DNA from: Candidatus Saliniplasma halalkaliphilum
Lineage (GTDB): Archaea > Thermoplasmatota > Thermoplasmata > Halarchaeoplasmatales > Halarchaeoplasmataceae
Assembly (NCBI GenBank): GCA_019594235.1
Contig: JAFDTG010000001.1
Coordinates: 5,722-69,721 of the forward strand
Direction: 5' to 3'
DNA length: 64,000 nt
The notes below the pieces were generated by a model that saw nothing but the letters and a program-made list of their open reading frames with translations, did not search any database and was not told where the DNA came from. Position 1 is the first letter of the stretch. Each line of letters starts with the position of its first letter. Below, piece by piece: positions 14,467 to 42,881 of this stretch. The position numbers and the translations under genes are program-made.

Positions 14467-14540
14467 GGGCTCATAGTCTAGTTGGTTATGACGTCGCCTT
14501 GACATGGCGGAGGTCGCCGGTTCGAATCCGGCTGAGCCCA
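14467..14540 (+). tRNA. tRNA-Val (anticodon GAC)
   Basis: Cloverleaf: acceptor GGGCTCA/TGAGCCC, anticodon loop TTGACAT, T-loop GGTTCGAATCC, discriminator A; CCA not encoded. Confidence 0.85.
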
Positions 14541-20397: not shown

Positions 20398-20497
20398 AGC
20401 GGGGTAGGGTAGCTAGGAAAACCCGTCGGGCTCATATGGTGCATAATAAAGCACCTGAGGAACCCGGAGACCAGTGGTTCAAATCCACTCCCCGCTA
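20398..20497 (+). tRNA. tRNA-Met (CAT), initiator-like, with a 25-nt canonical (37/38) BHB intron
   Basis: Acceptor AGCGGGG/CCCCGCT (A1:U72); anticodon stem with three consecutive G:C pairs, loop CUCAUA|A; intron 20437-20461 with GGUGC/GCACC hairpin and UGAG pairing CUCA to form the bulge-helix-bulge; T-loop GGTTCAAATCC. Confidence 0.75.
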
Positions 20498-35327: not shown

Positions 35328-36473
35328 ATGGAGTCAATAATAAATCAGGCTTTAAATAAGCACGAGAAGGATGAAACATCTGAAAAAGAAAAACCCAGAG
35401 GAAAAACGATAGAAGATGTCGATGAAGAAAAGATCGAAGGAGCTCCTGAAGATGAAGAGCTTCGGGATTTACTCGAAACACTAGAAGTCAAAATTCGAAT
35501 ATTTGGCTGTGGTGGAGGAGGATGCAATACTTTAGATCGTCTGACACAAGAAGGTATCAGCGGAGCTGAATTAATTGCATGCAACACCGATGCAAAACAT
35601 CTACTTCATACTCATGCTCAGAAAAAGGTTTTGATAGGCAAAAACACCACTAGAGGATTAGGTGCGGGTGCTAGACCAGAAGTAGGTGAAGAATCTGCTA
35701 GGGAATCAAAAGAAGAATTAAAGAAATACATGGAAGGTGCTGATATAGTGTTCATCACAGCAGGTATGGGAGGAGGTACTGGTACTGGTGTAGCACCTGT
35801 TGTTGCTGAACTAGCAAAAGAAGAAGAGGCACTTGTTATGGGTGTAGTTACACTTCCTTTTGAAGGTGAAGGTAGAGAAAGGATGAAGAATGCCAAAAGA
35901 GGCCTTTCTAAACTAGAACGATACTGTGACACAACTGTTATAATACCCAATGATAAATTATTGGAATTAGTACCTAATCTTTCTCTTAACGCTGCATTCA
36001 AAGTTGCAGACGAAATATTGATGGAATCTATCAAAGGGATGACCGAAATCATCACAAAACCAGGTCTTGTGAACTTGGATTACAACGATGTTAGAACCAT
36101 AATGGATGATGGCGGTGTCGCCATGATCGGTATCGGTGATTCAGATGATCCAAACAACAGGGTCGACGACGCAGTTAATCAAGCTATCGGTTCACCATTG
36201 TTAGGTGAGATCGACTTGAGCGATGCAAACGGCGCACTGATCAGGGTTACAGGTGGTCCAGACATGACCGTAACCGAAGCAGAAAGAGCTGCAGATTTAG
36301 TGAATGAAAAGATATCCGGCGACGCAAGAATAATTTGGGGCTGTAATGTCGAGGAAGATTTAAAGAACACAATGAAGATCTTATTGGTTATAACAAACGT
36401 TCATTCAGAATCTGACCAATTAGCCCATGAATCTATGATCGGTTCCGGCGACGGAATAGATATGGTAGATTAG
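35328..36473 (+). CDS. ftsZ: cell division GTPase FtsZ
   Basis: GGGGCNT, tubulin signature GMGGGTGTG, NTDAKHL; start at M25 of the track ORF. Confidence 0.9.
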   Translation: MESIINQALNKHEKDETSEKEKPRGKTIEDVDEEKIEGAPEDEELRDLLETLEVKIRIFGCGGGGCNTLDRLTQEGISGAELIACNTDAKHLLHTHAQKKVLIGKNTTRGLGAGARPEVGEESARESKEELKKYMEGADIVFITAGMGGGTGTGVAPVVAELAKEEEALVMGVVTLPFEGEGRERMKNAKRGLSKLERYCDTTVIIPNDKLLELVPNLSLNAAFKVADEILMESIKGMTEIITKPGLVNLDYNDVRTIMDDGGVAMIGIGDSDDPNNRVDDAVNQAIGSPLLGEIDLSDANGALIRVTGGPDMTVTEAERAADLVNEKISGDARIIWGCNVEEDLKNTMKILLVITNVHSESDQLAHESMIGSGDGIDMVD

Positions 36474-39983: not shown

Positions 39984-41828
39984 TCATTCTGAAAAAATAA
40001 CTCTCGCATCAAATTCAACTACTGGACATTTACCCAAACAGGTTCTACAGGTATTACATTTTTCAGAATCGATGTAAATCCCATTATTAAATTTTAGAGC
40101 ATCGTTGGGACACCTAGCAACGCAGATACCACATTCAGCACAATGCCTAGCTTTTATATGTATTTCATAGATATCTCCGTGATCTAAACCATGTTTTTCG
40201 AGTGTTTCCTTGAATTTATTTATATTTGATTTGTCAAATGTTTCTATTATGTCTTTGGATAATATTATATTTAGTAAATTTCTAGTTCTTTGATCTTCCA
40301 TCATTTCAGGTATGGAAGGTTTTACTTCTTTTGAGGATATTTCGGTTGAAAAATTTTCATCAATCCTATCTAAAAGTATCTCTATTTCTTTAGGTACATC
40401 ATTCCATCGCCAGAGTCCTAGTTCTTTCCAGATCTCAGGGAGTTTAGCCTTTTTTCTATAATTTTCTAAAACATCTTCAAATTTGTCATAACCTTCAAAC
40501 CTTTCTTTCAGCGTTTCAAGCTCTTCAATGTCAGATGCTGGACAAACCCAACATCCAATTCTTTCGAACCCCTTTTCATATAAAGGGTTATAATCTGCAT
40601 CTTTCAAAAACAAGTACATCCATACATGCAAAGCTGTCCAATCCTGTATAGGTGAAGCCGATCTTTGGCCAGGAACCCATGGATTGTTCCAGGTACTTCC
40701 TTTATCTTTTCTTTGCTCCGATTCATACCTACGTTGACCGATGAAAGATAATACACCATCGGAATATTCTTCATCTATCAAAAGAGCTGTTGGACCTAAT
40801 TTACAAGTTTTGCAGCACCAACGATAATCTCTAGCTGATGGACCAAAATAATCAACATTATCCCAATAACCGCTTCTAGCTCTTTTGGAGAATAAGTTTA
40901 GATCATATTTTTCAGCTATATTTTGGACGTTTTCCACAGTTTCTGGTAATTCTATACCAGTGTTTATGAACATAAGATCTGGTTTTATACCTGTATCCAT
41001 CACGAGATGTAATGTAGCTAAGGAATCTTTTCCACCACTGTAAGCTACAGCTGTCGGTAATTCAGTTTTATCGACTTTATCCTTGACGAAATCAACAGCT
41101 TTCATTACCCTTTTATCGATCAAAGGTTTATTCGCCTCGAGAACAGTGTCCCAATCAATTGATGTATCATTCAAAGTAAAATCTGAAACCCTCCAGCGAT
41201 TTTTAACCGATTTTCCATAATCAGATTCTAACATTTTCGAGGCATCCATCTGAGCAGAACCGGCTGCGATTATATTTCCATGTTTATCTAGTATCAATAC
41301 CTCGTCGTCTGTTTCTATATTTTCATCGGCTTCGATTATCCCTGGTGCTAATATACTAGCCCCATTCAATATTGGTTTTACCGCTCCATCATCGACTATA
41401 ACAAATCCCTTCTTAGGTTGTGGCATATTTTTCCACGGTCTTATCAAAAATTCATAGGGTTCTTTACCTTCAGCTCTTTTGAATATGTTGTACCTTAAAT
41501 TCCCCACCACATGTCCATCTATGATCACTTCATCCATCCTATCTATGTGAGGCGAATTGTTCAGAAGGATAACTTCTCTGTTCCCGAACAGTTCTTTGTA
41601 ATAGGATTCACCCCATTGGTGATCAATAGTTTTCTCCAAGCGTTCCTTATCTAATGAGAAGGCAGGTCTTACGTCACCGGGTGGTGTTATCTTCACTTGT
41701 TCACCCTCAGATGAACAGATACCACACTGGCCTTCTTCGACTAATGGGATATTGCATTCCTTACACCAGTGTAAATGTAACTTACCTAATCTTATAATGG
41801 ACATGAATTGATATCTAACATTATACAA
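39984..41828 (-). CDS. multidomain PP-loop (PAPS-reductase-family) ATP pyrophosphatase with N-terminal Zn-ribbon/PUA-like domain and C-terminal 2x[4Fe-4S] ferredoxin
   Basis: 614 aa; CKEC..CGIC ribbon; PP-loop AYSGGKDS; C-terminal CAECGICVARCP...CNTCRTCLGKCP. Confidence 0.6.
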   Translation of the reverse strand: MYNVRYQFMSIIRLGKLHLHWCKECNIPLVEEGQCGICSSEGEQVKITPPGDVRPAFSLDKERLEKTIDHQWGESYYKELFGNREVILLNNSPHIDRMDEVIIDGHVVGNLRYNIFKRAEGKEPYEFLIRPWKNMPQPKKGFVIVDDGAVKPILNGASILAPGIIEADENIETDDEVLILDKHGNIIAAGSAQMDASKMLESDYGKSVKNRWRVSDFTLNDTSIDWDTVLEANKPLIDKRVMKAVDFVKDKVDKTELPTAVAYSGGKDSLATLHLVMDTGIKPDLMFINTGIELPETVENVQNIAEKYDLNLFSKRARSGYWDNVDYFGPSARDYRWCCKTCKLGPTALLIDEEYSDGVLSFIGQRRYESEQRKDKGSTWNNPWVPGQRSASPIQDWTALHVWMYLFLKDADYNPLYEKGFERIGCWVCPASDIEELETLKERFEGYDKFEDVLENYRKKAKLPEIWKELGLWRWNDVPKEIEILLDRIDENFSTEISSKEVKPSIPEMMEDQRTRNLLNIILSKDIIETFDKSNINKFKETLEKHGLDHGDIYEIHIKARHCAECGICVARCPNDALKFNNGIYIDSEKCNTCRTCLGKCPVVEFDARVIFSE

Positions 41829-42451: not shown

Positions 42452-42715
42452 TCCGGTGGATTGAAATAATAGTGTAGATGTATTTTATATGTCCTGCATA
42501 GAAGGTCACGGGGAGTTTCCCAGGACTATGAACCGTGATGCAAGTGCGGGACATGGTTCTGATGGGTCCCCTTGTGAGGTCAGGACGTGACGTCCTTCTA
42601 TGAACAAGGACCAACCCCAGAACCGGACAAACCCCTGGCTAGAGTCAGGAGGGGGAGATGGACGTCCCCTACGATGAACCTTACTGTTACAGCCAGGGGA
42701 CAACTTTACAATCGA
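42452..42715 (+). ncRNA. GC-rich structured non-coding RNA candidate, class unresolved (SRP RNA, RNase P RNA and H/ACA-like were considered; strand uncertain)
   Basis: About 55% GC over ~230 nt in a ~37% GC genome; no plausible ORF; several nested perfect helices (see findings); TATA-like ATATAAAAT at 42428. Confidence 0.4.
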
Positions 42716-42716
42716 G

Positions 42717-42881
42717 ATGATACATATCAGTAAAAAAATAAAAAGGTGCCCTAAATGCGGAAGCACAGATATCGTATCAGAAGCTGGTATGATGACTGGT
42801 TACAAATATCATTGTCGAAAATGCGATTACGTAGGAGCTCTGATTCTGGAAGAATATCTAGAAAAAGAAACTGATAAATAA
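42717..42881 (+). CDS. small Zn-ribbon protein (54 aa), hypothetical
   Basis: CPKCGS..CRKCDY four-Cys ribbon; starts 1 nt after the GC-rich element; under 60 aa, so absent from the ORF track. Confidence 0.4.
   Translation: MIHISKKIKRCPKCGSTDIVSEAGMMTGYKYHCRKCDYVGALILEEYLEKETDK

Follow-up and report, generated by a model that had tools for sequence, protein, structure and literature searches.

A probable three-hairpin box H/ACA guide RNA gene of the Pab40/HgcG family upstream of a zinc-ribbon gene in Candidatus Saliniplasma halalkaliphilum

We analysed a window of 64,000 nucleotides (nt) from Candidatus (Ca.) Saliniplasma halalkaliphilum (assembly GCA_019594235.1, contig JAFDTG010000001.1, positions 5,722 to 69,721; coordinates below are those of the window) and found that a GC-rich island within it is, to judge from its sequence, very probably the gene for a three-hairpin archaeal box H/ACA guide small RNA (sRNA), an orthologue of Pab40/HgcG/Pf7/Afu4. 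The three-hairpin H/ACA sRNA lies at about 42490-42705 on the + strand and is ~215 nt long; it is a real and conserved but ordinary RNA gene. Direct support comes from homology to the Rfam family RF00064, conservation, covariation, motif layout and complementarity to heterologous ribosomal RNA (rRNA); that the RNA is expressed and co-transcribed, binds proteins and has the proposed targets in this lineage is inferred. An initial annotation of this DNA had described the island as a structured non-coding RNA and listed several possible classes. Its suggestion of a multi-hairpin guide sRNA is borne out by the RF00064 match and by covariation, whereas its suggestions of a ribonuclease P (RNase P) or signal recognition particle (SRP) RNA, and of a pairing resembling RNase P helix P4, did not hold.

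The family assignment rests on an Rfam search with cmscan, which the initial annotation had proposed. At gathering thresholds the window gave two tRNAs and nothing else. In E-value mode (E ≤ 10 locally, E ≤ 0.05 for the whole window) the + strand of the island matched RF00064 (HgcG/Pab40, an archaeal three-hairpin H/ACA sRNA) over the entire model (1-276 of 276) with 55.5 bits and an E-value of 2.3e-14 locally or 2.5e-12 window-wide, and this was the sole non-tRNA match in the 64 kb at E ≤ 0.05. The alignment takes in all three motifs in the same order and extends to the guide strands of motifs 2 and 3. RF00064 was also matched by five of the six homologues searched, at 23.6-56.7 bits (49-57 for three-hairpin and 24-32 for two-hairpin forms); for the remaining one, L010, there was no match with E ≤ 0.01.

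Comparison of syntenic regions, likewise proposed beforehand, gave strongly covarying hairpins. Using nhmmer, a homologous RNA was found just past the 3' end of the PAN proteasome-ATPase gene, on the opposite strand, in 22 of 23 related hypersaline Thermoplasmatota metagenome-assembled genomes (MAGs); at the remaining locus, L023, nhmmer found none beyond the PAN 3' end. The close PAN relatives all come from Thermoplasmatota MAGs of hypersaline and soda-lake sediments and include Ca. Saliniplasma and Ca. Natronoplasma, which have been assigned to the order Ca. Halarchaeoplasmatales (PMC11332174). The PAN proteins of the compared genomes are only ~70% identical. Two alignments were made, A1 of the 15 three-hairpin sequences and A2 of 22 sequences.

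RNAalifold on the 15 three-hairpin sequences returned three independent hairpins, and 25 of their 56 pairs have compensatory changes. With the H/ACA model on A1, 93.3% of alignment cells were paired, 25 of 53 pairs had changed on both sides, and the covariation was 0.337 compared to at most 0.124 for slid controls, a value reached by none of 500 shuffles. On A2 the lower stem of hairpin 1 (HP1) together with hairpins 2 and 3 (HP2 and HP3) gave 94.9% paired cells, 23 of 46 pairs changed on both sides and a covariation of 0.303 versus at most 0.132 for slid controls, again with 0 of 500 shuffles as high. The covarying helices contain many G-U pairs and the RNA was therefore assigned to the + strand, which folds better than shuffles with z = -3.44 (- strand, z = -2.19).

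Several helices picked out by eye in the initial annotation are among those supported by covariation in 15-22 homologues. UCACGG/CCGUGA (42506-11/42533-38) and CCCCUGG/CCAGGGG (42632-38/42693-99, then ACA at 42700-02) had been placed correctly, while the helix AUGUCCUG/CGGGACAU is present and supported with its 5' arm at 42489-96 rather than 42487-94, and the supported hairpin AGGACG-UGA-CGUCCU sits at 42582-96, one base away from the position first given. The alternative pairing GGGAC/GUCCC and the pairings GGGA/UCCC and GGGGA/UCCCC occur in the sequence but find no support across the homologues. Taken jointly, the four extra helices of that annotation had 70.7% of cells paired compared to 70.0% in shuffles, and a covariation of 0.112 compared to 0.104.

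The layout of the class, which calls for a lower stem of at least 7 bp below the internal loop (PMC2377435), is present in all three hairpins, with lower stems of 9, 8 and 9 base pairs (bp), upper stems of 6-7 bp and an internal loop. Above each upper stem the sequence has the layout of a kink-turn (K-turn), a 5' GA facing a 3' NNN-GA-A/U, and the 5' GA and 3' UGA are invariant in all three hairpins (15-22 homologues). The pocket strands stay constant while the stems vary, namely GAAG/UGCAA in HP1, GGGUCCCC/CAACCCC in HP2 and GAGUCA/GUUAC in HP3. Published rules, established by experiment for Pyrococcus, give an upper stem of 5-6 bp and an ANA-to-target distance of 14-15 nt (PMC2377435). HP2 and HP3 fit this geometry, since both have 14 nt to the ACA and 6-bp upper stems. 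By analogy with the known family, L7Ae would bind the K-turn of each hairpin and the Cbf5-Nop10-Gar1 pseudouridine synthase would occupy its ACA and lower stem. Pairing of the two single strands of the pocket with 23S rRNA would leave a uridine between them, which Cbf5 would convert to pseudouridine. A substrate should read 5'-(complement of the 3' guide)-U-N-(complement of the 5' guide)-3'.

HP3 (42632-42702, +), recognised from covariation and invariant columns, is a canonical H/ACA motif; the initial annotation had noticed the H/ACA-like lower stem and ACA of this last hairpin. The 9-bp lower stem (42632-40/42691-99) is followed by the 5' guide AGAGUCA (42641-47), an upper stem (42648-53/42679-85) with one unpaired base and a register ambiguous by one bulged base, a K-turn of GGA (42654-56) opposite GAU-GAA (42673-78), the 3' guide GUUAC (42686-90) and the ACA box (42700-02), 14 nt past the upper stem. 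A few invariant pairs are proposed in the apical part above the K-turn (42657-72 and 42660-61/42667-68). Helix 5, in HP3, is paired in 99% of cells with four pairs changed on both sides, and GAGUCA, GUUAC, GGGGAG, UGAACC and ACA are invariant (n = 22). Pab40 motif 3 has exactly the same 3' guide, UGUUAC, and GUAAC-U matches E. coli 23S rRNA at 1910-15. The predicted target of HP3 is U1915 in the loop of helix 69, in the context 5'-GUAAC-U-A-UGACUC-3'.

A metagenome scan with a helix-69 pattern, built from the HP3 guide with a prokaryote-type flank added, returned nine contigs (L035-L043) sharing one near-identical helix-69 context; no archaeal contig matched. HP3 has a full 11-bp match at helix 69 in the large-subunit (LSU) rRNAs of these contigs, which were thus fetched with a guide-derived pattern and show only that such a helix-69 variant exists in nature. 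One of the nine, L036, was checked with Rfam and is a eukaryotic rRNA operon. Scanning viral contigs for rRNA found nothing. After helix 69 these contigs, from the JGI metagenomes, carry GGUAGCGAAAUUCC, a flank which we take to be typical of prokaryotes and not of eukaryotes.

HP2 (42554-42629, +) is a motif with a large pocket, defined by covariation, invariant columns and target scans. An 8-bp lower stem (42554-61/42618-25) encloses the invariant 5' strand AUGGGUCC (42562-69) and the invariant 3' strand A-N-CAACCC (42610-17); above them are a 6-bp upper stem (42570-75/42604-09), a K-turn of GA (42576-77) opposite UAU-GA (42599-603) and an apical stem (42582-87/42591-96). The ACA box (42627-29) is preceded by the 14 nt from A42613 to G42626 and is nearly invariant (AUA in L027, CCA in L012). 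The HP2 helices are paired in 84-99% of cells with 12 pairs changed on both sides, and the 3b.3n position of the K-turn (pair 132-163) is mostly non-Watson-Crick, as is typical. We rejected an alternative closure of the pocket by GGUCC/GGACC with a CC bulge, in which C42611 changes to A or U without compensation.

The guides proposed for HP2 are AACCC (3', 42613-17) and GGUC (5', 42565-68). GGGUUU occurs once in E. coli 23S rRNA (2581-86) and not at all in 16S rRNA, and U2586 tops the HP2 sites in E. coli 23S rRNA, being tied on total pairs and having the most Watson-Crick pairs. Furthermore, the equivalent of U2586 in one eukaryotic LSU rRNA forms nine Watson-Crick pairs with HP2, which 3 of 1000 shuffled guides reach. 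We therefore predict U2586, near the peptidyl-transferase centre, as the HP2 target, in the context 5'-GGGUU-U-A-GACC-3' (AACCC/GGGUU and GGUC/GACC). By an offset estimated at ~92, U2586 would correspond to P. abyssi 2678. Motif 2 of Pf7, Afu4 and Pho40 is expected to act at this site, which is modified in haloarchaea, fly and mouse.

HP1 (42490-42553, +) was identified from the cmscan alignment to Pab40 motif 1 and from covariation. It has a 9-bp lower stem (42490-98/42545-53), the 5' guide UAGAAG (42499-504), an upper stem (42505-11/42533-39), a K-turn of GGA (42512-14) opposite UAU-GAA (42527-32), a small apical stem (42515-18/42523-26) and the 3' guide GCAAG (42540-44). Its helices are paired in 93-100% of cells with nine pairs changed on both sides, and there is no variation in GAAG, UGCAA, GA and UGA. 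Pab40 motif 1 has U2588 as its validated target; by homology, HP1 probably targets the E. coli equivalent of U2588, which we take to be 23S U2496, within 5'-CUUGC-U-N-CUUC-3'. The HP1 guides match heterologous rRNAs only partially, and U2496 is the weakest of the three target assignments.

Pab40/HgcG/Pf7/Pho40 of Pyrococcus and Thermococcus, the RNAs of RF00064, are built like the present RNA, with three H/ACA hairpins one after another in matching order. Motif 2 shares GGUCCCC and AACCC, which are also in the Pyrococcus consensus, as well as a large pocket, and it has likewise been described as atypical in Pab40. The motif 1 guides are similar, UGCGAC/GCGAGG in Pab40 and UGCAAG/AGAAGG here. 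The sites that we predict are the counterparts of the published 23S targets of these RNAs, namely U2588, U2678 (expected for Pf7 and Afu4) and, in stem-loop 69, U2016. U2016, the motif 3 target, is one of the two conserved pseudouridines of that stem-loop, and the pseudouridines at P. abyssi 2016 and 2588 are conserved in eukaryotes as well (PMC2377435).

The differences from Pab40 are several. The present RNA belongs to another phylum-level lineage, that of a mesophilic halophile whose window averages 36.5% GC. The ACA linker after motif 1 is missing, the 'aACAG' of Pab40 being deleted in the cmscan alignment, so that HP1 and HP2 abut with only U42554 between them. None of the three motifs here has a K-loop; each has a K-turn with an apical stem, in HP3 a proposed one of a few pairs, and a conserved zinc-ribbon open reading frame (ORF) follows the sRNA. 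In addition, the 5' guides differ, GAAG here versus CGAGG in motif 1 and GAGUCA here versus GGUUA in motif 3, and the rRNA is therefore predicted to co-vary with them.

The other known relatives were compared through the literature rather than by sequence. Afu4 of Archaeoglobus fulgidus has three H/ACA motifs, as here, and its motif 2 is expected to act at the equivalent of P. abyssi 2678. Both Af4.3 and a motif of M. jannaschii guide modification in helix 69, at L1970 and L2015 respectively, which are equivalent to L2016 of Pab40.3. The two-motif sRNA of Haloferax volcanii directs Hvo1 to L2621 and Hvo2 to L1956 and L1958 in the helix-69 loop. If L2621 is E. coli U2586, as we presume, Hvo1 and Hvo2 have the same order and predicted sites as HP2 and HP3 and as the seven two-hairpin variants described below. 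In contrast to HP2 with its oversized pocket, Hvo1 has a canonical 10/5/9 fold, and Hvo2 serves two uridines whereas HP3 fits U1915 only. In eukaryotic H/ACA small nucleolar RNAs, such as yeast snR191 for helix 69 and snR46 for position 2865 of 25S rRNA, the chemistry, pocket logic and rRNA positions are the same; these RNAs differ in being built of two hairpins with an H box and an ACA box, in lacking a K-turn and in using Nhp2 instead of L7Ae. A literature search for H/ACA RNAs in Thermoplasma found nothing.

The sRNA is preceded by TCCGnTGG, which most homologues conserve, and a TATA-like GGATTRAAATA (42453-42469, +), with invariant T/A columns and constant spacing in the 22 homologues, in all of which the TATA-like box ends ~21-22 nt upstream of the first base of HP1. 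The two elements probably form a BRE (TFB-recognition element)/TATA promoter, in which TCCGnTGG could be the BRE or a transcription-factor site, and the fixed spacing is consistent with expression of the sRNA. Transcription would start ~22 nt past the TATA-like box and read through into the zinc-ribbon ORF. The start is probably at the first base of HP1, and the Pab40 transcript, by RNA-seq, begins at the first base of motif 1.

The zinc-ribbon ORF encodes 54 amino acids (aa) (42717-42881, +; CPxCGS...TGYKYxCxxCxYVG...IEE) and is conserved together with the RNA. Its start lies 14 nt after the ACA of HP3, not 1 nt downstream of the RNA as first reported. In 21 of the 22 loci an ORF of 50-55 aa begins 10-64 nt past the ACA, and between the two there is no run of more than three Ts. 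A separate promoter would not fit between them, either in the window or in its closest relatives, which makes co-transcription likely; as far as the genomic layout can indicate, sRNA and ORF are probably on the same transcript. Pfam and NCBIfam give the protein, which is not Nop10, only sub-threshold matches to generic zinc ribbons, Nop10p not among them. Most of its 361 relatives are from Thermoplasmata. Three more distant homologues, at four loci (L045-L048), have no such RNA upstream. One of these loci, L046, is a more distant Thermoplasmata contig in which the zinc-ribbon gene is again convergent with PAN and is preceded by a 228-nt GC-rich gene-free gap (L046:9772-10001) with the TATA-like ATTATTGAAA. 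The gap has no similarity to the window sRNA by nhmmer and could hold a different small RNA.

A number of observations weigh against the assignment to an active Pab40-type guide. The score of 55.5 bits falls short of the RF00064 gathering threshold of 77, and the sRNA therefore escaped the default Rfam scan. The match of HP3 to eukaryotic LSU loci is circular because the search pattern was derived from the guide itself, and the complements in this lineage at helix 69 (UGACUC) and at 2491-2501 (CUUGC...CUUC) are predictions. A regular-expression scan of the 64 kb for Cbf5, Nop10 and L7Ae signatures came back empty and tells nothing about the genome outside the window. The pocket of HP2 is oversized (8+8 nt, with 17 nt from upper stem to ACA) and its 5'-guide pairing is only 4 bp. 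At the canonical 14-15 nt HP1 lacks a single-stranded ANA box, its 14-nt position being occupied by UGG; its ACA (42551-53) is instead paired with UGU (42490-92) at 11 nt from the upper stem, and this pairing covaries (U-A to C-G in L012). An internal H/ACA motif lacking a free ANA box is unusual among archaeal multi-hairpin guides, and the absence of the box at the canonical distance makes the activity of HP1 uncertain. Finally, the pocket, upper stem and K-turn of HP1 are cleanly deleted in seven Natronoplasma-like MAGs (L013 (4374-4600), L014, L015/L016, which are identical, L022, L024, L025 and L026; all minus strand). These forms keep the lower stem as a plain GUCCGG-nnnn-CCGGAC stem-loop before HP2 and HP3, and the result is a two-hairpin RNA resembling the haloarchaeal H/ACA sRNA.

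The anomalies of HP1 and HP2 would be explained if the RNA derived from an H/ACA guide but had partly lost this function, with HP1 and possibly HP2 being relics or structural or chaperone elements and HP3 the sole active guide. Besides the box-less and sometimes deleted HP1 and the large pocket and weak 5' pairing of HP2, this reading can call on the P. abyssi motif 2, whose own activity is poor and whose target was changed by one mutation. Yet the pocket strands and K-turns of HP1 and HP2 are invariant while their stems covary, in genomes whose PAN proteins have diverged to the extent given above, which points to selection on the single-stranded bases, and HP2 matches U2586 uniquely. Hence we regard a partial loss of guide function as unlikely.

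A further proposal goes beyond the guide sRNA itself. Across Ca. Halarchaeoplasmatales the sRNA and the zinc-ribbon gene might form one unit, in which the guide is matured from the 5' part of the mRNA and the protein is tied to it functionally, for example as a lineage-specific ribonucleoprotein or ribosome-biogenesis cofactor, and HP1 might be active in the absence of a free ANA box through coaxial stacking on HP2 or through its helix-embedded ACA. We think it quite improbable that this holds as a whole. If it did, an active box-less HP1 would relax a rule thought essential for the positioning of Cbf5.

The close spacing of sRNA and ORF also admits the reading that the region is primarily a cis-acting 5' leader, controlling translation or stability of the zinc-ribbon ORF, and not a trans-acting guide. 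It agrees with the short T-run-free interval after the last ACA and with the several loci that lack room for a separate TATA box, and Shine-Dalgarno-like GAGG or AAGG precede several of the start codons. However, a leader leaves unexplained the full-length, significant match to an H/ACA family, the three K-turns, the ACA boxes at 14 nt and the invariant pocket strands complementary to rRNA. Moreover, the A/T-rich spacers in L017, L009 and L011 could be the ORF's own promoter, and the more distant homologues of the ORF occur without the RNA. A leader as the primary role is thus very unlikely; co-transcription and guide function are not mutually exclusive, and a leader role may be an additional property of the guide sRNA.

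A divergent or reduced RNase P or SRP RNA, which the initial annotation had listed among its options on the grounds that the window was said to encode Rpp21 and that GUCCGGU/ACCGGAC (42452-58/42622-28) looks by eye like the P4 strands, is effectively refuted, as neither RNaseP_arch nor Archaea_SRP matched (E ≤ 10 in the region, E ≤ 0.05 window-wide), the covarying architecture is that of three independent hairpins, and the long-range pairing is formed in 57% of cells with covariation no higher than controls. Its GUCCGGU arm lies upstream of the conserved TATA-like box and is therefore probably promoter DNA outside the transcript.

The guide sRNA adds an unannotated, Rfam-invisible member of the Pab40/Afu4 family in an uncultured branch of halophilic Thermoplasmatota, and the RF00064 model could be broadened with the 22 sequences. 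It also speaks for an ancient origin and wide retention, in Euryarchaeota-type lineages, of guided pseudouridylation in the helix-69 loop and at positions 2496 and 2586 of the peptidyl-transferase centre. Of interest to specialists are the box-less, sometimes deleted HP1, the tight coupling to the zinc-ribbon ORF and the predicted guide-target co-variation at helix 69 and position 2499; neither the HP1 anomaly nor the ORF coupling is surprising enough to alter current understanding.

The composition of the island agrees with what had first drawn attention to it, a GC content of about 55% on a background of about 37% with no credible ORF, between uspA and pan. The GC content is 55.9% over 42490-42702 and 36.5% over the whole window, and the 150-nt stretch with the highest GC in the 64 kb is 42519-42668 (0.58; mean 0.365, standard deviation (sd) 0.049, hence ~4.4 sd above the mean), followed by 36112-36261 (0.52), which lies within a 405-aa ORF. 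The island is non-coding and is crossed only by the antisense ORFs noted before (72 and 86 aa), both of which exist mechanically. Upstream of the sRNA, on the - strand, is a weakly Usp-like gene (Pfam Usp, E = 3.9e-4, below the cut-off), whose protein is encoded on a contig of the MAG GCA_019594225.1, and downstream are the zinc-ribbon ORF and the PAN gene, convergent with it. GC-rich islands in AT-rich genomes of mesophilic archaea are useful pointers to sRNA genes.

One of the homologous loci, L018 (JBKHKA010000010.1), is labelled 'Candidatus Aenigmatarchaeota archaeon', but its PAN, sRNA and zinc-ribbon sequences group with the Thermoplasmata/Natronoplasma loci and the taxonomic label is probably wrong. 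The two tRNA genes of the window are one at 20398-20497 (+; Rfam tRNA, 51 bits) with a 27-nt intron in the anticodon loop and an intron-less one at 14467-14540. Two genes upstream of the sRNA, at 39984-41828 (-), is the gene for a 614-aa protein composed of a PUA domain, a PAPS-reductase/PP-loop domain and a C-terminal 4Fe-4S dicluster domain, which could be an RNA-modification enzyme.

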